Source: Actinomycetota bacterium
GTDB taxonomy: Bacteria; Actinomycetota; Acidimicrobiia; Spongiisociales; UBA4744
DNA length: 64,000 bases
NCBI GenBank assembly: GCA_013152275.1
Contig: JAADGS010000018.1
Location: 11,896 to 75,895 of the forward strand
Direction of reading: 5' to 3'
In this document: positions 8,072-44,040 of the stretch, in pieces
Layout of the letters: each line of letters opens with the position of its first letter
Position numbering within the stretch: position 1 is the first letter of the stretch
Position numbers and translations under genes: made by a program
Notes under the pieces: generated by a model
Seen by the model: only the letters and a program-made list of their open reading frames with translations
Databases searched by the model: none
What the model was told of the DNA's origin: nothing

Positions 8072-8533
8072 TCAGCCGATCAGGTAGGTGCCCGTCCCGA
8101 CGGCGATCAGGTCGCCGGAGTCGTTGCGCAACTCCATCCGGGTGACGGCCACCTTGTTCCCCGCCCTGAGCGTGTACGCGGTCGCCTCGAACCTCGCGCC
8201 CACTCCTGGCCGAAGATAGTCGACACGCATATCGATCGTGCCGAGATGGGCGAAGCGCTCGGCCATGGTGGACGTATGGTTGCCGACCGCCGCGCTGATC
8301 GCAGACATCCCTCCGGCCACATCGAGGGTGGCCGAGATGACTCCGCCGTGGAGGCTGCCACGTGCGAAATTCCCGATGAGATCATCCCGCATCTCGAAGG
8401 TGAGGGTCGTACGATTCGGTCCCAGATCACCGAGCTGCAGGCCGAGCACCCGGTTGAACGGGATTTGGGCCTCGACGGCCCTCGTCAGATTGGCGAGATC
8501 GTTGGAGTCGTTCATGTAGGCGATTGTATGCAC
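8072..8533 (-). CDS. hotdog-fold thioesterase (PaaI/YbgC-like)
   Basis: The HGGV motif and overall length are typical of PaaI-type thioesterases. Start is uncertain: GTG at 8533 or ATG at 8515. Confidence 0.65.
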   Translation of the reverse strand: MHTIAYMNDSNDLANLTRAVEAQIPFNRVLGLQLGDLGPNRTTLTFEMRDDLIGNFARGSLHGGVISATLDVAGGMSAISAAVGNHTSTMAERFAHLGTIDMRVDYLRPGVGARFEATAYTLRAGNKVAVTRMELRNDSGDLIAVGTGTYLIG

Positions 8534-8768: not shown

Positions 8769-9563
8769 TCAGCCGACGCGTCGGCGCAGACGAAGCATCC
8801 AGAACAGCGCGGCGCCGCCCACCGCCCCGGCGAGTGCGGCACCCGACACGACGGGCGTGGGACGGGGCAGGGACGCCAGACGTGTGCGGATCGTCACCGG
8901 CCGCTCGAAGCGCAGGATCTCCCACCCCCGCTCCTCTGCAACCTTGGCGAGTTCCTTGTCCGGGTTGACCGCCACGGGGTGCCCCACCGCTTCCAACATC
9001 GGAATGTCGGTGTGGGAGTCCGAATAGGCGAAGGACTCCTCGAGTGAGATGCCTTCGCGTTCGGCAAACTTCTCGATCGCCTCCGCCTTGCCCTGACCGT
9101 AGGCGTAGAACTCGATCTCGCCCGTGTACCGGCCGTGGTTGTCGACCGCGGCTCTCGTCGCGATGATCCGATCGACACGGAGATGGGAGGCAAGTGGCTC
9201 CACGATCTCCTCTGCGCTCGATGAGACGATCACGACCAGTCTTCCGGCCTGAAGGTGCTCGTCGATGATTACGAGCGCTTCGGCGAACACGAGTGGTGCC
9301 ACGACCTCGTCGACCGTCTCTCTGGCGATATTGCGTAGCTGTTGTTGATCCCACCCCTTGATGATCGCCATCATCTCTCCCCGGGCCCGCTCCATCTGGT
9401 CGTGGTCTGCTCCGAACATGCGGTACGAGATCTGCGCGAGCCCGGCCTTGAGGAGGGCGCGACGATTCAGCAGGCCCGCCTTGTAGAGGGGGCGGCCGAA
9501 GGCGAGCGTCGACGACTTGGCGATGATCGTCTTGTCGAGGTCGAAGAAGGCGGCTGCGGTCAC
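8769..9563 (-). CDS. HAD-IB family hydrolase (SerB-like), C-terminal TM anchor
   Basis: FFDLDKTII (DxD HAD motif I). C-terminal hydrophobic tail plus RRR. Positioned like Mtb Rv3661 next to the tad locus. Confidence 0.8.
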   Translation of the reverse strand: MTAAAFFDLDKTIIAKSSTLAFGRPLYKAGLLNRRALLKAGLAQISYRMFGADHDQMERARGEMMAIIKGWDQQQLRNIARETVDEVVAPLVFAEALVIIDEHLQAGRLVVIVSSSAEEIVEPLASHLRVDRIIATRAAVDNHGRYTGEIEFYAYGQGKAEAIEKFAEREGISLEESFAYSDSHTDIPMLEAVGHPVAVNPDKELAKVAEERGWEILRFERPVTIRTRLASLPRPTPVVSGAALAGAVGGAALFWMLRLRRRVG

Positions 9564-9719: not shown

Positions 9720-10250
9720 GTGCCGGTTCTGTGCGTCCGAACAGAACAAGATGGCCTGCTGTCGGCGATTGCGCCGATCGGTCTCGCCGCGGCGGTCGAA
9801 ACTGCGCTCGTCGTCGACCTCGATCCGGAAGGTCCCGACTATCGGGGTGAGACATCGCTTGCCCGTCTCGTCGCAGACGGTCCGACACGCCGGGATCTGC
9901 ATCCGTCGAGAAGAGGTGTTGCCGTTCTGCGCAACGGCGGGATCGCCTACCAGGAGGCGGAGCAGGTGCTGGACGCACTGAGTGAGGGCTGGCCGCACCT
10001 GGTGCTGCGGCTTCCGGCGCGTGGCCTGTCGGTTCGATACGCGCCGGTCGTCCCGGGGGCACTCGCCATCGCGCAGAAGGGCCCCGCCGTATTCCAGCGA
10101 GCCGGATTTCGACTGAAGCCGCCCGCGCCGGGACCTGTGCTTCCAGCGCCGTCACGACGCACGGTCGGCGGGTTGCTGCGCGGCCAGGTCGATTCGCACA
10201 GCCGTTGGATCCGCGCCTGGCGCGGCATCTGGGAGCTGCCATGGATGTGA
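9720..10250 (+). CDS. degenerate TadZ/CpaE-like (MinD/ParA-fold) protein lacking the P-loop
   Basis: AAGGAG SD 5 nt before GTG 9720. MinD-like N-terminus in which GKGGVGKT is replaced by EQDGLLSA, while the DxD-like VVDLDPEG is retained. 10-nt overlap with tadA. The earlier part of ORF 9342..10250 overlaps the HAD gene on the other strand and is rejected. Confidence 0.5.
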   Translation: MPVLCVRTEQDGLLSAIAPIGLAAAVETALVVDLDPEGPDYRGETSLARLVADGPTRRDLHPSRRGVAVLRNGGIAYQEAEQVLDALSEGWPHLVLRLPARGLSVRYAPVVPGALAIAQKGPAVFQRAGFRLKPPAPGPVLPAPSRRTVGGLLRGQVDSHSRWIRAWRGIWELPWM

Positions 10251-34639: not shown

Positions 34640-34999
34640 ATGAGCGGACGAATCGAGCTGGGCGGTATCCGGGTCTTCGCGCACCACGGCGTGTATCCGG
34701 AAGAACGGCAGGCCGGGCAGACGTTCGTGATCGATGTGACCATGTACCTGGATCTCGAGCCGGCCGCGGCGACGGACGATCTGGCGGCGACGATCGACTA
34801 CGGGGCCCTTGCCCAGGCCATCCATGATCGTGTCGCCGACGAGCGCTGGGGTCTCATCGAACGAGTCGCCGGCCGTGTGGCCGATCTGGTGATGGAGGAT
34901 GTCCGGATCGATGCGGTCGAGGTGACCGTACACAAGCCGGAGGCGCCGATTCCCGTCCCGTTCGACGACGTGTCGGTCTCGATCCGGCGGAGTCGATGA
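34640..34999 (+). CDS. folB: dihydroneopterin aldolase
   Basis: IRVFAHHGVYPEER, QTFVIDV motifs. Confidence 0.9.
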   Translation: MSGRIELGGIRVFAHHGVYPEERQAGQTFVIDVTMYLDLEPAAATDDLAATIDYGALAQAIHDRVADERWGLIERVAGRVADLVMEDVRIDAVEVTVHKPEAPIPVPFDDVSVSIRRSR

Positions 35000-35952
35000 C
35001 ACGGGCGGCGATCGCTCTCGGCTCGAACCTGGGTGACCGGATCGACCATCTCCAGGTCGCCGTCGTGGCGCTCGCCGCCTGTGGTGAGGTCGAGGCCGTG
35101 TCATCGGTGTATGAGACGGCGCCGGTGGGCGGGCCGGAGCAGGGACCGTACCTGAACGCCGTCGCCGTCGTCGAGACGGACCTGGAACCCCACGAGCTGC
35201 TCGACGGCCTGCTCCGGATCGAGCAGGAGGCCGGCAGGGAACGAACGACCCGGTGGGGACCGCGAACGCTCGACCTGGACCTGATCCTGTACGGCGACCG
35301 GATGATCGACGATGAGCGCCTGACGGTGCCGCATCCCCGATTCGCGCTCCGCCGGTTCGTCCTGGAGCCGCTCGCGGAGGTGTGGCCGGATGCTGCGACG
35401 CCCGATGGGGGGTCGGTCGCCGCTCTGCTCCCCTTCGTGCAAGATCAGAACGTGTCGCGGATCAATCGACGGTTGAGCACTCGCCCGGAGACATTCACGT
35501 CTCGGGGAGGCTGGTGGGTGACGGCGCAGGGCGTGGTGCTCGTTGCGGCGGCGGTGGCACTGCTCACCGATGCGGGCTCGTTGGCCTGGCCGCCTTGGGT
35601 CGTCTGGTTGGGAGCGATTCTGGCAGTTGCGGGTGCCGTCGAGTCGTTGCTCGGGTCACGGCACCTCGGTGCGAATCTGACGCCGTATCCGCAGCCGCTG
35701 TCCTCGGGGAGGCTCGTGGCGTCGGGCGCCTACCGGTGGGTGCGGCATCCGATCTACGGGGGGATCGTGCTGCTGCTCGTGGGCGCGGCGCTGCTCCGGT
35801 CGAGTCTCGTCGCGTTGATCGTCGGGATCGTCGGCGCAGCGTTCTTCTGGATGAAGGCCCGCTTCGAGGAGGAGCGCCTCGTCGAGCGCTACGCGGGGTA
35901 CGCGGCGTACCGGGCGCACGTGAGGAAGCGGCTCATCCCCTGGGTCGTGTAA
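34996..35952 (+). CDS. folK: HPPK (FolK) fused to C-terminal ICMT/PEMT-like membrane methyltransferase domain
   Basis: N-terminal AIALGSNLGDR, RWGPRTLDLDLI and TVPHPR are HPPK motifs. The C-terminal half has ~4 TM helices and RWVRHPIYGG with EEER, the ICMT/PEMT family signature. ATGA overlap with folB. Confidence 0.75.
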   Translation: MTRAAIALGSNLGDRIDHLQVAVVALAACGEVEAVSSVYETAPVGGPEQGPYLNAVAVVETDLEPHELLDGLLRIEQEAGRERTTRWGPRTLDLDLILYGDRMIDDERLTVPHPRFALRRFVLEPLAEVWPDAATPDGGSVAALLPFVQDQNVSRINRRLSTRPETFTSRGGWWVTAQGVVLVAAAVALLTDAGSLAWPPWVVWLGAILAVAGAVESLLGSRHLGANLTPYPQPLSSGRLVASGAYRWVRHPIYGGIVLLLVGAALLRSSLVALIVGIVGAAFFWMKARFEEERLVERYAGYAAYRAHVRKRLIPWVV

Positions 35953-36807: not shown

Positions 36808-38148
36808 ATGATCGACCGATTGCTCACCACGTTGGGGGTGTGGTCGCCGCTGCTCGTGTTCGCGCTCGCCATGGGGGAGAGCGCCGCGTTCCTCGGACTG
36901 TTTCTCCCCGGAGAGGTGACGGTGATCCTTGGTGGGGTACTCGCCGGAACCGGGGTCGTACCCCTCTGGGCGATGCTGATCGCAGCGGTTCTCGGAGCGG
37001 TGATCGGTGACTCGGTCGGGTTCTGGATGGGTGGCCACTTCGGGCCGGCGGTGCTTCGCAGGCCACGGCTCGCCAGGTTCGCAGGGCGGCTCGACGCGGC
37101 CGAGACGAGTCTGGCCCGACGTGGGTGGTCGGCACTCGTCGTCGCACGGTTCACATCGTTCCTGCGGGCAGTCGTCCCGTTTGCCGCCGGAATGGCGAAG
37201 ATGCCGTACGGGCGATTCGTCGTCGGCAACGTGGTCGGCGGGGTGCTCTGGGGGAGTTCCCTCACGCTCATGGGGTATCTGGCGGGTGACAGCTGGCAGG
37301 AGGTGGAACACTGGCTGTTGCGTGGTGGTTTGACGCTCGCGGGCGCGCTCGTCGTGCTCGGTGTCATCGTGTGGGCGAGCCGTTGGGTCGCGGGGCATCG
37401 CGAGAAGGTACTGGGATGGCTCGACCCGTTGCTGCGGACGCGTGTCGTTCGAGCCCTCGCGGACCGGTTGGAAGGCCCGTCGAGACGCGTGGCTCCCCTC
37501 CTGTATCTGTGGCCGGTCGCGTTGGTCATCGTCGGTGGTCTGTGGCTGTTCGGCGGTCTTCTCCAGGATGTGCTCGGGCAGGAGGAGTTCTTCTTCTTCG
37601 ACAAGCGGGCGCTGGAGTACGTGGCCACTCACCAGATACCGGCAGTCGTGCAGGCGGCGCGGTGGCTTGCCACGACCACACCGCAGTGGATGACGATGGT
37701 GGTCGGCGCGGGAATCGCCGCGGTCATGCTGTCGCGACGCTACGTCGGCCGCGCCATCGGGCTGGTCGTCGCCATCGCCGGCCAGTGGCTGATCGTCGAG
37801 GCGACACGACTTGTGGTCGACCGCTCGGCACCGTCGCTCACCGCGCTCGGCTCACGCGGCGACTACGGGTTCCCGTCCGAGTACATCGCCGCGCTCGTCA
37901 CGCTTCTCGTGATCCTCGCCTGGCCGTGGCGGCCGCAAGGGTGGCGTGCGACCACGTTTCGCTTCGGTGCCGCGATGCTGATCGCGGCCGTCGTGGGCTT
38001 CTGCCGCCTCGTACTGCTCCTCGAGTATCCGTCCGACGTGCTCGCCGGTGCAGCCGTCGGGGCAGGATGGACGGTGATGGCGCTCAGCCTCGCCGACCCG
38101 CGCATCCGGACGATACTCGCCAGGGCCGTGAAACACCCTCGGGAGTAG
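36808..38148 (+). CDS. DedA/SNARE-associated (VTT) domain fused to PAP2 phosphatase domain, membrane protein
   Basis: N-terminal DedA-like helices (FLPGEVTVILGGVLAG). C-terminal PAP2 motifs PSEY...YPSDVLAGAAVG. Confidence 0.7.
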   Translation: MIDRLLTTLGVWSPLLVFALAMGESAAFLGLFLPGEVTVILGGVLAGTGVVPLWAMLIAAVLGAVIGDSVGFWMGGHFGPAVLRRPRLARFAGRLDAAETSLARRGWSALVVARFTSFLRAVVPFAAGMAKMPYGRFVVGNVVGGVLWGSSLTLMGYLAGDSWQEVEHWLLRGGLTLAGALVVLGVIVWASRWVAGHREKVLGWLDPLLRTRVVRALADRLEGPSRRVAPLLYLWPVALVIVGGLWLFGGLLQDVLGQEEFFFFDKRALEYVATHQIPAVVQAARWLATTTPQWMTMVVGAGIAAVMLSRRYVGRAIGLVVAIAGQWLIVEATRLVVDRSAPSLTALGSRGDYGFPSEYIAALVTLLVILAWPWRPQGWRATTFRFGAAMLIAAVVGFCRLVLLLEYPSDVLAGAAVGAGWTVMALSLADPRIRTILARAVKHPRE

Positions 38149-38174
38149 TGCCTGTCGAGGTACCCGGTGCCCGG

Positions 38175-39395
38175 TCAGGCCGGCGCCAGGAACACGACGT
38201 CGGCAACACCGAAATCAGGAGCGACGAGCCGGTCCCGGAGCGGTAGGACATCCGTCTGCTTCAGCATGAGGGATCGCAGCACCCCGGCGCCTGCCGTGGC
38301 ACCGGCGAGCTGAAAGCCGACGATGCGACCGTCGTCCAGGAATACCTTGCGCATCAGGTCGCCCCTGCGCCAGTGCAGCTCCTCGGACCCGCTGCTCGCT
38401 CCGGCCACCATCACCGGCACACCGAGATGCTTCAGGCTGTTCATCGTCTCGGAGCCCTCATAGGCTCCGTCGTAGCCGGCGAGGCCATCGGCCACAACCT
38501 TCGCCTGAGCGACCGCGTTCGGGAAGATGGCATGAACATATCGTTCACCGGTGAGGCGATCGTATGTCTCGGCGACATCGCCTGCTGCGCTGATGCCCGG
38601 GATGTTGGTTCGAAGGTGATCGTCGACGCGTACACCCCAGCCGATGTCGAGACCCGAACCGGCAAGGTAGTCGACGTTCGGTTTCACCCCGGTGGCGGCG
38701 ACATAGGCATCGGCCGTCAGCGACTCACCGGAGTCGAGCATGAGACCCGTCACGCTCGTGGCACCTTCGAAACCGGAAGCCTTGGCCTCCAGGCGGACCA
38801 CGATGCCCCGGCTCTGCAACTCGGCCAGCACGATCGTTGCGGTCTCCGGGTCCAGCATTCTCGGCATGACCCGATCCATCATCTCGACCATGGTGACGTC
38901 CACGCCGAGATCGGTCAGCAGGAGGGCTACCTCCACGCCGATGAAGCCGGCGCCGACGATGAGCGCCCGTTCCACCTTGCCTCGACGGACCCCGTCGACG
39001 AGTTTGGAGGCTGCGGCCATCGACTTGAAGTTGGACACGCCCGGGAGGTCCCGTCCTTCGATCGGCGCGTACAGGCTGCTCCCCGAGGCGATGACCAGAT
39101 GGTCGTACGGCACACGGCCGGCCCCGTCGAGTGTCACCTGTCCGGATGTCGGGTCGATCCCCAGAACCCGGGTTCCGGAGCGGTAGTCGATGCCGAGACG
39201 GTCACAGACGTCACGACCTTTCCAGTAGATCGACTGTTCCCTTCCGGTCAGGAAGAAGTCCGCCATCGCGGGAGGTGCGTACGGCGGGTACGGTTCCGCA
39301 GAGATCATCACGATGTCGGTGTCGACGCCGTGTATGCGGAGCGTCTCTGCCACGGTGAGGCCGGCGGGACCGGCTCCAATGATCACGAGTTTCAT
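38175..39395 (-). CDS. FAD/NAD(P)-binding oxidoreductase (pyridine nucleotide-disulfide oxidoreductase fold, FNOR-like), CODH-associated
   Basis: Dinucleotide motifs VIIGAGPAG and LIVGAGFIGVE. No redox-active CxxxxC. Its ATG overlaps the cooC stop (TGATG). Confidence 0.8.
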   Translation of the reverse strand: MKLVIIGAGPAGLTVAETLRIHGVDTDIVMISAEPYPPYAPPAMADFFLTGREQSIYWKGRDVCDRLGIDYRSGTRVLGIDPTSGQVTLDGAGRVPYDHLVIASGSSLYAPIEGRDLPGVSNFKSMAAASKLVDGVRRGKVERALIVGAGFIGVEVALLLTDLGVDVTMVEMMDRVMPRMLDPETATIVLAELQSRGIVVRLEAKASGFEGATSVTGLMLDSGESLTADAYVAATGVKPNVDYLAGSGLDIGWGVRVDDHLRTNIPGISAAGDVAETYDRLTGERYVHAIFPNAVAQAKVVADGLAGYDGAYEGSETMNSLKHLGVPVMVAGASSGSEELHWRRGDLMRKVFLDDGRIVGFQLAGATAGAGVLRSLMLKQTDVLPLRDRLVAPDFGVADVVFLAPA

Positions 39396-40261
39396 CAGTT
39401 CAGCTCCTGCTCGGTCTCGATGAGGGCGTCACAGAGTCGTGTGACGCCGTCGGCAAATGGGGTCGGGGAGCCGTCGAGCAGGGGGCTCAGGTCCGGCTCG
39501 GTGTCCAGCACGTGCTCGTCGAAGGGGAGGGCATGGCGCGAGGTGAACGGGAACCCGCCTTCGGCCTCGATGCGAGCGAGGGCGCGTTCGACGTCTTCGG
39601 GCTTTCGGACCCGGTTGATCACGAGATGCACGGCGGGGATTCCGAGCTCACGTGCCAGCCTCGCGGTGTTGACCGCCACCTGGATGCCGTTGAACGTCGG
39701 ATCCGACACCACAACGGCCTGGTGGAATCCCTTGGCGATCGCCCGACCGAAGTGCTCGACTCCGGCCTGGGTGTCCATCAGGATGACTTCGTCGTCGCGT
39801 AGTGACAGGTCTCCGACGATGGCGTCGAGGAGCGCGTTCTCCGGGCACAGACAGCCTGCTGCCGGCACGGTCACGGTTCCCATGGCGAGGACGCGGATCC
39901 GGTCGTTCGCCGGCACGGCGAATCGATCGATCACGTCGCGCACGTCAGGGTTCAGACGGAACAGCAGCCCCCAGCCTTCCCCGGGTCTGGCTCCCGTCTT
40001 CTCCTCGACATAGTCTGCATTCCGGCTGAGGGGAACGATTCCCCGAGCTTGCTCGAAGGGAAGCCCGAGGGCGTAGGGAAGGTTCATCTGCGGGTCGGAA
40101 TCCACCGTCAGGACGGCGTAGTCGCGCCGGCCGAGGAGCCCGGCGAGGAGGGCGGTGAGGCTGGTCTTGCCTACGCCCCCCTTGCCGGTGACGACCACGC
40201 GGAAACCATCGAGGGGGCCGGCCGTGTGCCGGCTCCCATGTTCATGGCCGTGATCGCTCAT
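39395..40261 (-). CDS. cooC: CO dehydrogenase nickel-insertion accessory ATPase CooC (MinD/ParA family)
   Basis: Walker A GKGGVGKTS, Ni-binding CLCPEN (CxC). GGAGGAGG SD. ATGA overlap with the cooS stop. The upstream 345 codons of the ORF-track ORF are rejected. Confidence 0.85.
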   Translation of the reverse strand: MSDHGHEHGSRHTAGPLDGFRVVVTGKGGVGKTSLTALLAGLLGRRDYAVLTVDSDPQMNLPYALGLPFEQARGIVPLSRNADYVEEKTGARPGEGWGLLFRLNPDVRDVIDRFAVPANDRIRVLAMGTVTVPAAGCLCPENALLDAIVGDLSLRDDEVILMDTQAGVEHFGRAIAKGFHQAVVVSDPTFNGIQVAVNTARLARELGIPAVHLVINRVRKPEDVERALARIEAEGGFPFTSRHALPFDEHVLDTEPDLSPLLDGSPTPFADGVTRLCDALIETEQELN

Positions 40262-42183
40262 ACCCCTGCTCCGACCTCCTCCGGCATCGCGATGCTGTCC
40301 GGTTCGACGAACGGCAGGCCCAACGCCTTGCGTTTGGCTTCGATGTGGCGTCGGATCAACACTGCTGCCCGTTCCGGGTCCGGTTCGACTCCGAACGTGG
40401 CTCCGACGACGCCCTCGAGCCCGTCGGTCAGGAGGTTGACCACGTTCTCGCTTCCGAAGATCGGTGGTTGCACCCCCAGCACGGTGTAGATGCCGCTGGC
40501 CACGACGTACGCACCGATGGCGACGGCCTTCTCCGAATACCACTCGGGTGCCGCACCTGCCATCGGCAGATCGGAGATGTCGACACCGAGGTGGTTCGCG
40601 AGGGCCGCAGCCAGCACGAGGACGCGGCTGTTGTCCACACACGATCCCATGTGCAGCACCGGCGGGATGCCGAGTGCCTTGGCGATGGCTCCGAGTCCCG
40701 TCCCTGCCAGATCCGCGGCTTCGGGAACCAGGTGGCCCGCCTTCCCGTTGGCGATGGCGGCACAGCCGGTGACGACGACCAGGACGTCGTTCTCGATGAG
40801 TCGCTGTGTCAGCGTCACGTGGCCCTTGTCCTGTGGGATCTTCGGGTTGTTGCAGCCGACGATCGCGACCGCGCCGCGAATCTGTCCGCTCTTGATGGCG
40901 TCCACCAGCGGTTCGGGGGTGCCTCCCAGCGCGCCGAGGATCGCCTCGACGGAGAAGCCGGCCATCATCGGCACCGGTTCTCCCGGGATCAGGACCCGAT
41001 CGGGGACACGGTTGGCGTATGCCTCGACCGCCGCGCGCACGATCTGCTTGCCGATCTCGAGGCCCCGGTGAGGGTCGAACGAGATGTGCGTGGCGCCCGG
41101 GAACTTCGCCTTGTCGGCCGTCGAGATGATCTGTGTGTGGAAGCACTTGGCTATGTCCGTCACCGACGGCATGATGCACTGGTAGTCCACGACCATCGCC
41201 TCGAGCGCTCCCGTCATGATCACCAGTTCCTGTATCAGGTGGTTGCCGGCCATCGGCACCCCTTTGCGCATCAGGAGCTCGTTGCCGGTACAGCACAGTC
41301 CGACGAGGTTGATGCCTTCGGCACCCAGCTCCTTGGCACGTGCCACGAGTTCCGGGTCACCTGCCGCCTGCACGATCACCTCCGACAGCAGCGGGTTGTG
41401 GCCGTGCAGCGCGATGTTCACGTATTCCCTCTTGAGCGTGCCGAGGTTGACCTGGGACATGACCGGTTCGGGCGTGCCGAACAGCACATCCGACAGGTCG
41501 GTGGCGACCATCGACCCTCCCCAGCCGTCGGAGAGGCTCGTACGCAGGCCGTGCAGCAGGATGTTGACGTAGTCGTTGTCGACGCCCATGTGGGTACGGT
41601 GCAGCATCTCGACATTCTCACGATCGATGCCCCGAGGGGTGATCCCCAGCTCTGCCCACTTGGCCCTGCGCACCTCGGGGACGCGGCCCAAGAAACCGAT
41701 GCGCTCCTTGCGGCTTCCGTAGTCTTCGAAGATGGCCTCGGCCAGTTCGACGGCTACGTCCGACGCCGATCGCCCGTCGGAGGCGATGCCGTACTCCGCA
41801 GCCAGGCTCCTCAGTTTCGCTTCGTCCCTGATCTCGTATCCGCTGGTCTCGCCTTGGGCGGTCTCGAGGAAGACTTCGAGGATGTCACGGCCGTGATCTG
41901 AATGTGCGGCCGCGCCGGCGGCGATCGATCGGCCCAGGTTTCGGGCGACGATGGTGTCGGCATCGGCGCCACACACGCCCTTCTGGGGGCCTTCGCCAAA
42001 CGGGTCGACGCGACACGGGCCCATCGCACAGTTGCGACAGCTCACGCCCAGCAGACAGTATCCGCACTGTGGCTGCTGGGCGGCGAGGCGCTCCCACACG
42101 GTGTCGATACCTTCGAGGTGGGCTCGGCGCAGCATCACCTGGGCGTCTGCCGCAATGCTCTGTTTCTCGATTCGACTCGTCAT
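40258..42183 (-). CDS. cooS: anaerobic Ni,Fe carbon monoxide dehydrogenase catalytic subunit CooS
   Basis: D/B-cluster cysteines QCGYCLLGVSCRNCAMGPCR. Apparent C-cluster ligands HGHNP, GLCCTGNE, DYQCIM, VGCNNP, VTGCAA, MGSCVDN. GGGAGGAG SD. Overlaps the cooF stop (TGATG). Confidence 0.9.
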   Translation of the reverse strand: MTSRIEKQSIAADAQVMLRRAHLEGIDTVWERLAAQQPQCGYCLLGVSCRNCAMGPCRVDPFGEGPQKGVCGADADTIVARNLGRSIAAGAAAHSDHGRDILEVFLETAQGETSGYEIRDEAKLRSLAAEYGIASDGRSASDVAVELAEAIFEDYGSRKERIGFLGRVPEVRRAKWAELGITPRGIDRENVEMLHRTHMGVDNDYVNILLHGLRTSLSDGWGGSMVATDLSDVLFGTPEPVMSQVNLGTLKREYVNIALHGHNPLLSEVIVQAAGDPELVARAKELGAEGINLVGLCCTGNELLMRKGVPMAGNHLIQELVIMTGALEAMVVDYQCIMPSVTDIAKCFHTQIISTADKAKFPGATHISFDPHRGLEIGKQIVRAAVEAYANRVPDRVLIPGEPVPMMAGFSVEAILGALGGTPEPLVDAIKSGQIRGAVAIVGCNNPKIPQDKGHVTLTQRLIENDVLVVVTGCAAIANGKAGHLVPEAADLAGTGLGAIAKALGIPPVLHMGSCVDNSRVLVLAAALANHLGVDISDLPMAGAAPEWYSEKAVAIGAYVVASGIYTVLGVQPPIFGSENVVNLLTDGLEGVVGATFGVEPDPERAAVLIRRHIEAKRKALGLPFVEPDSIAMPEEVGAGV

Positions 42184-42794
42184 CAGACTCCTCCCGCCAC
42201 GTGAGCGACTTCCTTGCCCCAGGCTCGCCAGCCGGCCAACATGTCCGGCTCCGTCGGGGCCACGCCTGTGGTGGCATCGATCGCGAGCACCGCCTTCTGG
42301 ATCCGTTCCTCCCTCAGGAGGTCGTTCAGCTCCCCGTAGACGAGGGCATCCACCTTGCAGACTTCGACACACGCCGGTTCCTCGTCACGGCGGATGCGAT
42401 CGAAGCATCCGTCGCACTTGGTGGAGACGACCCGAGGCGCCGCCGCTTCGGCCTGCACATGGAACGTGATCGCAGCGAACGGGCAGACCATGGCGCACAT
42501 CGCGCAGGCGATGCACTTGTCGATGTCGACGAGAACGACGCCGAATTCGTCGTTGCGACCGATGGCCGCGGTCGGGCACACCTGCTGGCATGGCGCTGGG
42601 TCACAGTGGTGGCAACGGTTGGGGAACGAACTCCCCATCCATGGGCCGGATTCGACGTGGATCCTGGGCTTCGGCACAGGACTCTCGAAGATTGCCAGGT
42701 ACGGATCCTTGCTTCTGGAATGTTCGACCGCGCAGGCAAACTCACATTGCCGGCAGCCGATACATCGTTGTGGATTCACGAAGACTGTTTTCAC
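42183..42794 (-). CDS. cooF: CooF-type 4x[4Fe-4S] ferredoxin (CODH electron-transfer subunit)
   Basis: Four CxxCxxCxxxCP-type clusters (CIGCRQCEFAC, CHHCDPAPCQQVCP, CIACAMCAMVCP, CDGC...CVEVC). AGGAGG SD 7 nt before the GTG start. Confidence 0.85.
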   Translation of the reverse strand: MKTVFVNPQRCIGCRQCEFACAVEHSRSKDPYLAIFESPVPKPRIHVESGPWMGSSFPNRCHHCDPAPCQQVCPTAAIGRNDEFGVVLVDIDKCIACAMCAMVCPFAAITFHVQAEAAAPRVVSTKCDGCFDRIRRDEEPACVEVCKVDALVYGELNDLLREERIQKAVLAIDATTGVAPTEPDMLAGWRAWGKEVAHVAGGV

Positions 42795-42945
42795 ATGATC
42801 ACCTCCTGATGCGTCGTCGGGCGGGTTGTGCGCGTGACGGCGGCGCCCGTCGCCCAGGAGCCTGTTGGGCAATGCAAGGCACGTATCTCGACGACCGTGC
42901 AGCGCCCTTCGATGCAGTGAGCGACCGTGCTTTGTCACGCCAGAG

Positions 42946-43021
42946 CCGTCGCGCTCGCCCCGCGATCCCGAATCGACCCGAGGGTGCGATACGGAATGCG
43001 AAGCACCGGGTACGAGATGAG
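42946..43021. repeat. CGCTCGCC-core + CGAAG heptad intergenic element (upstream of cooF / DUF2520 divergent region)
   Basis: CCGTCGCGCTCGCCCCGCG ... GCGATACGGAATGCGAAGCACCGGGTACGAGATGAG. Shares its core and heptads with loci at 59.0, 61.7 and 63.0 kb. Confidence 0.7.
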
Positions 43022-43224
43022 TGATGCGTACAGTCGGCGATCCACGCACCGGCGTTACTCAGGAGACTTCTGGGTGGACAACTGGAAACTACCCCATGAT
43101 GCTTTCCACGCTAGCTCCGTACGTGCGTCGGCGTCGGCCTCGACGCGTTCTTGTGACAGATGGTGAGAACGGCGGGTAGCCTGTTGTCCGGTCGGGTACC
43201 GCGGACTCGAACCGGGAGGTTCCG

Positions 43225-44040
43225 TTGAACATCATCCTCGTCGGACCGGGGCGTGCAGGCACGGCGTTGTGTCTGGCTGCAGCATCGGCGGGTCACCGTG
43301 TCGTCGCCGTGCTCGGGCGCAGACGGGAGGCCGTCGAGGAGGCCGCTGCACGATTCGACGCTTCTGCCCTCTGCTTCGACGACGGTCTCCCCGCGGCGGA
43401 TCTGCTCGTGGTGGCGGTGCGGGACGATGCCATCGAAGAGGTCGCCGGGCGGCTGGCACCGGGTGTGTCCAACGTCGGCGCCGCCGTTCACCTCAGCGGT
43501 CTGAAGCCGGCGTCGGCACTCGGTCCGCTGGCCGATGCGGGAGTGTCGATCGGCGTGCTGCACCCCCTGCAGACGTTGCCGACGCCCGAGGCGGGAGCCG
43601 CGGCCATTCCCGGTTCATGGTTTGCCGTCACCGCACACGATCCGGGACTCCGGTCGGATCTCGAAGACCTCGTCGCGTCGATCGGCGGGCACCCCTTTGC
43701 GCTCGGCGACGAGGATCGTGCCCTCTATCACGCCGCTGCCGCGACCGCAGCGACCGGTACGGTCGCCGTGCTGGCACTCGCGGCAAAGCTGTTTGCGGCG
43801 GCAGGTGTTCCGTTCGAGGCGGCCCGCCCGCTCGTCGAGGCCGTCGTCGCCAACGCATTCCGGCTCGGTCCGGGGGAGTCGCTGACCGGTCCGATCCAGC
43901 GGGGCGACGTCGGGACGGTTGCCGCCCAGCTCCAGGCCGTCGCCGATCGTCTACCCGAAGAGGTCGACCGGTTCCGGATGCTCGGTAGAGTCGTGGCCGA
44001 ACTGGCGGGGACCCGAGACATCTTCGAGGAGATTCTGTGA
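43225..44040 (+). CDS. Rossmann-fold NAD(P)-binding protein with DUF2520 (Rv3603c-like)
   Basis: N-terminal ILVGPGRAG dinucleotide fold. Position immediately before panC as in mycobacteria. TTG/GTG start is uncertain. Confidence 0.65.
   Translation: MNIILVGPGRAGTALCLAAASAGHRVVAVLGRRREAVEEAAARFDASALCFDDGLPAADLLVVAVRDDAIEEVAGRLAPGVSNVGAAVHLSGLKPASALGPLADAGVSIGVLHPLQTLPTPEAGAAAIPGSWFAVTAHDPGLRSDLEDLVASIGGHPFALGDEDRALYHAAAATAATGTVAVLALAAKLFAAAGVPFEAARPLVEAVVANAFRLGPGESLTGPIQRGDVGTVAAQLQAVADRLPEEVDRFRMLGRVVAELAGTRDIFEEIL

Follow-up and report, generated by a model that had tools for sequence, protein, structure and literature searches.

Gene clusters in which CooS, the catalytic subunit of a carbon monoxide dehydrogenase that contains nickel (Ni-CODH), is encoded together with the polyferredoxin CooF and an NAD(P) oxidoreductase that depends on FAD (FNOR) were described in 2015–2016, and since 2019 they have been a standard category of Ni-CODH gene context that includes enzymes of structural group E-2 (PMC4703632; PMC6344411; PMC8776680; PMC13240472). 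In Geobacter sulfurreducens, CO-dependent NADP+ reduction was found in extracts of cells that encode such a cluster with the gene order cooS-cooC-cooF-FNOR (GSU2098–2095; Geelhoed et al., 2016; PMC4703632). The functional residues of the Desulfovibrio vulgaris CODH, including an extra cysteine that is used in Ni insertion, were defined from its structure (PMC6168284), and in AorABC, the tungsten aldehyde oxidoreductase of Aromatoleum aromaticum that was solved by cryo-EM (8c0z), a four-cluster polyferredoxin feeds electrons from a tungsten site of low potential into a FAD subunit that reduces NAD+, with 9.5 Å between the last cluster FS4 and the FAD (PMC10413684). Here we analyze a cluster of the CODH/CooF/FNOR type, the cooF-cooS-cooC-FNOR operon, in a stretch of 64,000 nucleotides from an Actinomycetota bacterium (contig JAADGS010000018.1), to which we refer in its full length as the window; the 2019 survey contained Ni-CODHs from only five actinobacterial genomes (PMC6344411). 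We favor the view, with a probability of about 0.62, that this operon encodes a functional, self-contained cytoplasmic CO:NAD(P)+ oxidoreductase that goes back to an old single acquisition and has been inherited vertically since.

The four genes lie in the same direction on the minus strand and overlap at each junction, in full agreement with the original prediction. cooF (42183..42794) encodes a protein of 203 residues with matches to Pfam Fer4_11 and other Fer4 families, and it starts with a GTG codon that is located 8 nt after an AGGAGG Shine-Dalgarno sequence. It is followed by cooS (40258..42183), which encodes the catalytic subunit of 641 residues and matches TIGR01702, by cooC (39395..40261) for the Ni-insertion ATPase of 288 residues (Pfam CbiA), and by the FNOR gene (38175..39395) for a protein of 406 residues (Pfam Pyr_redox_2 and Pyr_redox). 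The successive overlaps are TGATG (−1 nt), ATGA (−4 nt), and TGATG (−1 nt), and Shine-Dalgarno-like GGAGG or CAGGAG runs precede all four starts. The same overlaps are kept in three relatives, namely L002 (BMS3Abin02, GCA_002897675.1), L093, and L005, and the alignment with L002 and L005 shows that the GTG start of cooF is conserved together with its Shine-Dalgarno sequence. A longer cooF that would extend in frame to position 43049 has no such conservation in the relatives. Since one directon unites cooS and cooF with the gene of a COG1251-like FAD-NAD(P) oxidoreductase, the locus is a CODH/CooF/FNOR cluster as understood by Geelhoed (2016) and Inoue (2019). At NCBI, CooS of the window already bears the annotation of an anaerobic CODH catalytic subunit, and as the cluster type and the clade are known as well, our results refine the current understanding and do not change it.

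CooS reaches 712 bits with the NCBIfam equivalog model TIGR01702, whose cutoff is 478, whereas the hybrid-cluster (hydroxylamine-reductase) models yield merely 57–62 bits at cutoffs of about 360. A hybrid-cluster protein (Hcp) is thereby excluded, and the hidden Markov model comparison that had been suggested for the predicted CODH has come out in its favor. The best match in the PDB is the D. vulgaris CODH (6b6v; E = 4e-244; 58.5% identity over 620 aligned residues), and in the ranking by bit score this enzyme (815) is followed by those of Thermococcus (6t7j, 776), by CODH-IV (6elq, 644), by the Rhodospirillum rubrum enzyme (594), and by CODH-II (579). When mapped onto the D. vulgaris CODH, every one of the D-, B-, and C-cluster ligands that CooS was claimed to possess is in place. 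These are C40 and C43 at the D-cluster, C49, C52, C57, and C71 at the B-cluster, and H262, C298, C336, C444, C474, and C515 at the C-cluster (D. vulgaris H266, C302, C340, C448, C478, and C519), so that the loss of C-cluster ligands, which had been named as evidence against a CODH, has not occurred. The acid-base pair of catalysis, H94 and K552 (D. vulgaris H97 and K556), and C297 (D. vulgaris C301), the extra cysteine of Ni insertion, are retained as well. The D-cluster motif C40-GY-C43-LLGVS-C49 has the Cys-X2-Cys-X5-Cys spacing of type III, and because Inoue et al. (2019; PMC6344411) characterize their structural group E-2 by type III together with complete active-site motifs, CooS is assigned to this group by its motifs. 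Clade E would be its place according to the ranked similarity, with the D. vulgaris enzyme on top. All this suggests that CooS is an oxygen-sensitive-type Ni enzyme that oxidizes CO. It is reported for the Cys-X2-Cys D-cluster of D. vulgaris that it binds a [2Fe-2S] cluster and is tied to O2 resistance (Wittenborn, 2020, as cited in PMC13240472).

CooF contains 16 cysteines that are arranged in four CxxCxxCxxxC-type motifs (positions 11/14/17/21, 61/64/69/73, 94/97/100/104, and 127/130/142/146), corresponding to the four [4Fe-4S] clusters that were expected. We regard as a CooF-type polyferredoxin a protein of about 20 kDa with four Cys4 motifs whose gene adjoins cooS, and CooF has these motifs and is encoded beside cooS. 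Its matches in the PDB include HycB4 of 7qv7 and AorA of AorABC (8c0z_C, E = 1e-13), and a partial NCBIfam match to PadI stays below the cutoff.

CooC has the P-loop GKGGVGKT, a deviant Walker A motif, and it matches CooC1 of Carboxydothermus hydrogenoformans (3kje) with E = 2e-34. In this alignment, C137-L-C139 coincides with the Ni-binding C-Y-C of CooC1, and the CxC Ni motif ascribed to CooC is thus real; no CooC equivalog model was matched in NCBIfam. CooC also carries a His-rich N-terminal extension with the sequence DHGHEHG (residues 1–19, MSDHGHEHGSRH, encoded at 40205–40261 of the window), which CooC1 of C. hydrogenoformans does not have. In L008, one of the remote cassette loci described below, the counterpart at 9940–10030 reads HHHAHEHEHEHAHEHPHGHAH, and the His-rich N-terminus is conserved in eight cassette homologues. 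It could be a built-in Ni-binding tail that takes the place of CooJ or CooT.

The FNOR contains the two Rossmann motifs GAGPAG and GAGFIG, and its only cysteine is C64. The protein sequence has no CxxxxC disulfide and no Nox-type active cysteine near position 42 (the region 35–47 reads PYPPYAPPAMADF). With C64 as the sole cysteine, the FNOR must lack a redox disulfide, as had been noted before, and likewise the active cysteine of Nox or CoADR, and its assignment to the disulfide- or cysteine-based flavoprotein reductases (GR/Nox/Npx/CoADR) was rejected for this reason. The best PDB match is AorC, the FAD subunit of AorABC (8c0z_E, E = 1e-48), which aligns over residues 1–342 and leaves the C-terminal residues 343–406 unaligned, while NADH oxidases and peroxidases are matched more weakly than AorC. 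In NCBIfam, there are partial matches below cutoff to PadH and to the N-terminus of NirB (183 bits). PadH and PadI are subunits of the NADH-dependent phenylglyoxylate dehydrogenase. In view of the AorA/AorC matches and the partial PadI/PadH matches, CooF and FNOR look like a recurring NAD+-reducing module of a polyferredoxin and a flavoprotein, here joined to a Ni-CODH. In Rossmann folds, a glutamate after the second strand generally favors NAD+. In the NAD domain of the FNOR, the second β-strand ends with E171 (VTMVE, compare TVVE in AorC), which suggests a preference for NAD+.

From these properties, a path of the electrons can be proposed. CooC, with its CxC motif and its His-rich tail, would supply the C-cluster of dimeric CooS with Ni, and CO would then be oxidized to CO2 by CooS. 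In a complex of CooS with its partners, the electrons would exit via the B-cluster and then via the D. vulgaris-type Cys-X2-Cys D-cluster, presumably a [2Fe-2S] cluster, reach the FAD of the FNOR through the four [4Fe-4S] clusters in CooF, and there reduce NAD+ or NADP+. Electrons from CO are thus probably passed to NAD(P)+, and the correspondence of FNOR and CooF to the AorC/AorA module supports this path. Physiologically, CO may be harvested as a supplementary source of both reductant and energy in habitats such as sulfide deposits or sediment with little oxygen.

The described systems share different parts of this path. The G. sulfurreducens cluster has the same four products in one predicted operon for a cytoplasmic monofunctional CODH, with neither a hydrogenase nor an acetyl-CoA synthase, and the same path from CO via CooS, CooF, and FNOR to NAD(P)+ was proposed for it. 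The window differs in its gene order, in the lack of an RcoM gene upstream, and in its host, which is an actinobacterium and not a deltaproteobacterium; moreover, the CooS of G. sulfurreducens is a group E-1 enzyme whose D-cluster is of type II (PMC6344411), while that of the window has the type III Cys-X2-Cys motif. The clusters of Clostridium contain CooF, CooS, and FNOR as well (PMC4703632; PMC6344411), but their enzymes belong to clade C and are devoid of the His/Lys acid-base pair (PMC6344411), which the window CooS possesses with H94 and K552. AorABC resembles the operon in its FNOR homologue AorC and in AorA, which has four clusters like CooF; its catalytic subunit, in contrast, is a tungstopterin aldehyde oxidoreductase and not a Ni-CODH, and AorA forms filaments via a C-terminal helix. 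The D. vulgaris CODH (6b6v, group E-2) is the best solved match for CooS and has the same C-, B-, and D-cluster ligands and the same C-X2-C-X5-C motif. We take its gene to be paired with cooC and the CooA regulator, and not with cooF and FNOR, and the electron acceptors of the two enzymes would therefore differ.

Several points weigh against the proposed CO:NAD(P)+ oxidoreductase. The Geobacter precedent was established with extracts and not with purified enzyme, and for a cluster with an E-1 D-cluster and another gene order. No biochemistry existed for any FNOR of the CODH-linked type, none of which had been purified (PMC6344411), and we found nothing on a purified CODH-FNOR in the literature after that survey. 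The FNOR has no match to the C-terminal domain by which AorC docks to AorA, and the decision between NAD+ and NADP+ rests on one residue. Finally, neither a CO sensor (CooA or RcoM), nor a Ni transporter, nor a downstream NADH-consuming partner is encoded within the 64 kb.

Clusters of CooS, CooF, and FNOR have also been suggested to serve in oxidative-stress defense, as conveyed by two papers that refer to Wu (2005) and Whitham (2015) (PMC6344411; PMC4703632), and the original prediction was right to associate both this role and NAD(P)H generation with the architecture. The electrons of CO would then pass via CooF to an FNOR that acts as an oxidase or feeds peroxide- or oxygen-detoxifying enzymes. 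The models are CODH-IV of C. hydrogenoformans, whose cooF-cooS-FNOR genes are accompanied by one for rubrerythrin (PMC4703632; PMC6344411), and an O2-induced cluster of Clostridium ljungdahlii. The Cys-X2-Cys motif of CooS, being of the type linked to O2 resistance in the D. vulgaris enzyme according to the account in PMC13240472, would suit such a role, as would the weaker FNOR matches to NADH oxidases and peroxidases. However, neither in the window nor in any of the nine contexts that were inspected does a rubrerythrin, peroxidase, or flavodiiron gene lie beside the cassette. As the FNOR with its single C64 also lacks the redox-active cysteine of Nox, Npx, and CoADR, and as the solved structure closest to it is that of an NAD+-reducing subunit and not of an oxidase, we consider a role in stress defense unlikely.

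The second part of our interpretation, the old acquisition with subsequent vertical inheritance, follows from the comparison of the locus with that of relatives. On its left side, the operon is separated by a 26-bp spacer (38149..38174) with convergent stops from the gene of a membrane protein in which DedA (VTT) and PAP2 are fused (36808..38148, plus strand; PF09335 and PF01569 were detected with the identical gene call in L001). On its right side, DUF2520 (43225..44040, plus strand; PF10728) is the first gene of DUF2520-panC-coaX-lysS, and the right boundary is formed by the conserved putative promoter and leader of these genes (43178..43224, plus strand; TAGCCTG...GGTACCGCGGACTCGAACCGGGAGG), which is outside the coo block. 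Both flanks had been recognized in the original prediction and are supported by Pfam and by the synteny with relatives. The coo block occupies the identical site in the window, L002, L093, and L005–L007, thus in at least four taxa with flank identities down to 76%. CooS is 94% identical to the window protein in L002, 92% in L093, and 85% in L005–L007, whose flanking proteins are 76% identical. L094 (GCA_964496205.1), which was found by a PanC-guided protein search and contig look-ups, has an empty site: DedA/PAP2 is 68 bp away from DUF2520 and there are no coo genes, while the order folK-PEMT, methyltransferase, DedA/PAP2, DUF2520, panC is as around the coo block. L095, L096, and the Acidimicrobiia-labeled L012 and L019 have no coo block either, and their folK is adjacent or nearly adjacent to DUF2520, while DUF2520-panC-coaX-lysS is conserved in all relatives examined. 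A universal presence of the four genes at this locus, which would have spoken against an insertion, is therefore not observed. In a scan of the genome collection with a PanC alignment and the motif VPTMGY[FL]H, the matches listed did not exceed 61% identity and lacked the close lineage, but they included Acidimicrobiia loci in which folK neighbors DUF2520. Among the matches listed there and in the PanC-guided search, the named genomes nearest to the flanks were Acidimicrobiia metagenome-assembled genomes (MAGs) with about 60% PanC identity.

The history of the block was addressed with 1,208 ungapped columns of PanC, LysS, DUF2520, and CoaX. The flanks group as ((window, L002, L093), (L005, L094)), with L005 and L094 as mutual nearest neighbors in all 500 resamplings and a flank identity of 81% between them versus about 75% to the window group. 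The closest pairing for all four cassette proteins is that of the window group with L005. In the simplest history, the block would have been gained once, before the two groups separated, and later lost in L094; alternatively, recombination through the flanks may have spread the block among relatives. Relative to BMS3Abin02, the synonymous divergence (dS) is 0.23–0.39 for the coo genes and 0.27–0.39 for the flanks, and the ratio of nonsynonymous to synonymous divergence (dN/dS) is 0.10–0.22 (0.10 for cooS) and 0.11–0.16, respectively. We propose that all four genes arrived together at the site between DedA/PAP2 and the DUF2520-panC promoter, that vertical inheritance under purifying selection followed, and that one sister lineage lost them or never had them fixed. 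The coo block is thus an insertion, but an old one, which this proposal places in an ancestor of the actinobacterial lineage. One of the relatives is unusual in its name: L093, with 92%-identical CooS and PanC, belongs to a MAG that is labeled "Gammaproteobacteria bacterium" at NCBI. Since the locus is the same actinobacterial folK...panC-lysS block, this contig is probably mis-binned or mislabeled.

The block had originally been described as an island inserted into conserved synteny. The interruption of the gene order holds, in view of the empty site in L094 and the folK-DUF2520 neighborhood in remoter relatives, but the block is neither recent nor compositionally distinct. If an actinobacterium that is otherwise aerobic had recently taken up a foreign genomic island, this could explain why the conserved order is broken and why the block is absent from L094, L095, and L096, and the cassette has clearly been exchanged between phyla. 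Nevertheless, such a recent event is very improbable and already largely refuted by the co-divergence data. The comparison of base composition and codon usage with the flanks, which had been suggested, revealed no deviation: the GC content at third codon positions (GC3) is 0.77–0.83 in the coo genes and 0.74–0.86 in the neighboring window genes, the overall GC content is equally indistinguishable, and dS is the same as in the flanks. The codon-usage distances of FNOR and cooS lie slightly above those of similarly long housekeeping genes; they are nevertheless inside the range of the window genes and were not taken as a sign of foreignness. Lineages with only 76% flank identity share the site, and the borders of the block have no tRNA, integrase, transposase, or other mobility gene. 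There are also no direct repeats or target-site duplications around it, the longest word common to both boundaries being an 11-nt inverted match, and the PLSDB plasmids contain no close homologue, the nearest match being 51% identical. A recently integrated island was hence rejected by composition, mobility genes, tRNA target, and direct repeats alike.

The cassette as such is widespread, and it is conserved in eight loci beyond the window. CooS homologues of 76–82% identity are abundant in metagenomes, from sources labeled Chromatiales, Lysobacterales, Kentrum, Gemmatimonadales, Chloroflexia, Myxococcales, and Acidobacteriota. Five other contexts were inspected, namely L008 on a 2-Mb contig, L009 (Chromatiales, CP070671), the Chloroflexia-labeled L010 that has no cooC, L091, and L092. 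The order cooF-cooS-(cooC)-FNOR is found in all five, with overlapping or closely spaced genes in neighborhoods that are unrelated, and since the same cassette therefore occurs in unrelated neighborhoods under other phylum labels, it must be a unit that is exchanged between phyla. By the established redox potentials, the reduction of CO2 to CO (about −520 mV) is out of reach for NAD(P)H (about −320 mV) unless bifurcation is involved. As the operon encodes no bifurcating partner, and as none of the contexts inspected has acsB/cdhC or a Wood-Ljungdahl gene close to the cassette, it is most improbable that CooS works in reverse and supplies CO from CO2 to an acetyl-CoA synthase or another acceptor encoded elsewhere, even though Ni-CODHs are reversible and a Clostridium autoethanogenum mutant of an FNOR-linked CODH is said to have suggested a CO2-reduction role (PMC6344411, citing Liew, 2016).

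With regard to the lifestyle of the hosts, the window encodes sugar and nucleoside ABC transporters, xylose genes, Tad pilus genes, and an H+-pyrophosphatase, together with a housekeeping run that is typical of actinobacteria (topA, tmk, tilS, hpt, ftsH, and the fol genes through clpC, radA, disA, and carD). The assumption of an aerobic actinobacterium was not borne out, as nothing in the 64 kb indicates aerobic respiration and the nearest relative, the 94%-identical BMS3Abin02, comes from a sub-seafloor massive sulfide deposit (PMC6759336). Our search of the literature on BMS3Abin02 and on cooS in Acidimicrobiia or Kentrum yielded nothing specific. Near the cassette in other genomes, there are genes for enzymes of O2-using type (L091, 3882–6182 and 12862–15701; L009, 12729–13739; L008, 16509–17828), among them an acyl-CoA oxidase, a xanthine-dehydrogenase-type Mo enzyme, a luciferase-like monooxygenase, and an amine oxidase, which is a weak hint that some hosts of the cassette are not strict anaerobes.

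A more far-reaching idea, which we put forward tentatively and consider rather doubtful as yet, is that cooF-cooS(E-2)-cooC-FNOR is a horizontally mobile and comparatively O2-tolerant CO:NAD+ oxidoreductase that channels trace CO into the NADH pool of facultative or microaerobic bacteria. The Cys-X2-Cys D-cluster, the His-tailed CooC, and the CooF and FNOR homologous to AorA and AorC may be its defining features, and Actinomycetota as well as genomes labeled Chromatiales, Gemmatimonadales, Chloroflexia, and Kentrum may be its hosts. If this were true, the cassette would fill a niche between aerobes with Mo-CODH and strict anaerobes. In any case, the cassette family is well suited to address whether CODH/CooF/FNOR makes NAD(P)H from CO, and whether a D. 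vulgaris-type D-cluster gives oxygen tolerance beyond sulfate reducers, and a natural comparison is offered by one chromosomal site that is occupied by the cassette in the window, L002, and L005 but empty in L094.

The gap between cooF and DUF2520, which is longer in L002 (590 bp) and shorter in L005 (217 bp), measures 430 bp in the window, and all but its last 47 bp constitute the poorly conserved upstream leader of the coo operon (42795..43177), which aligns with patchy conservation only. L002 has an extra ~150 nt in this leader (at about 9090–9240) that the window does not have, and L005 lacks most of the leader. We found no sigma-70 consensus, no Rfam match, no tRNA (ARAGORN), and no recognizable regulator site in the 430 bp, in line with the earlier statement that an obvious CooA or RcoM site is missing. 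The only candidate for a promoter or operator of the coo genes is the block TAGCGTGGAAAGCATCATGGGGTAG, which is common to the window (~43085–43115), L002, and L005. The single hit of the Rfam scan, a sub-threshold match to the NiCo riboswitch at 42490–42651 (plus strand), antisense within cooF, was taken as chance (23.4 bits versus a gathering threshold of 37; E = 0.13). The repeat element that was thought to be present upstream amounts to a single copy of the octamer CGCTCGCC at 42952, and the repeats of the region are short two-copy ones that form no family. In the whole window, this octamer occurs 23 times (for example at 2291, 24975, 25023, and 42952) versus 12.6 expected, a number that none of 100 shuffles reached, and 18 of the 23 copies are on the plus strand. 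It is a strand-skewed oligomer and not a repeat element.

Directly 5′ of DUF2520, the gap ends with the 47-nt element TAGCCTG...GGTCGGGTACCGCGGACTCGAACCGGGAGG, which is found at 43178–43224 (plus strand) of the window, at 8154–8200 of L094, and at 9179–9225 (minus strand) of L005. A 24-nt core, with one position left free, is exactly conserved in L001–L007, L093, and the empty-site L094, and a related form exists in L095. Most simply, this element would be the promoter and leader of the DUF2520-panC operon. Its complement resembles the T-arm and acceptor end of a tRNA (GGTTCGAGTCC...ACC). A tRNA-derived att remnant was rejected for the T-arm-like GGTTCGAGTCC, as it is equally present at the empty site of L094 and lies within the DUF2520 leader. 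ARAGORN and Rfam returned no match for the element.

Upstream of the DedA/PAP2 gene, the window contains a further fusion. At 34996–35952 (plus strand), folK (HPPK) continues into a C-terminal PEMT/ICMT-like methyltransferase domain, giving a protein of 318 residues. This fusion is not found in L096, L012, and L019, but it is kept in the lineage and in some remoter relatives, with lengths of 314–327 residues and with L095 (7128–8111) and L014 (6936–7880) as examples.

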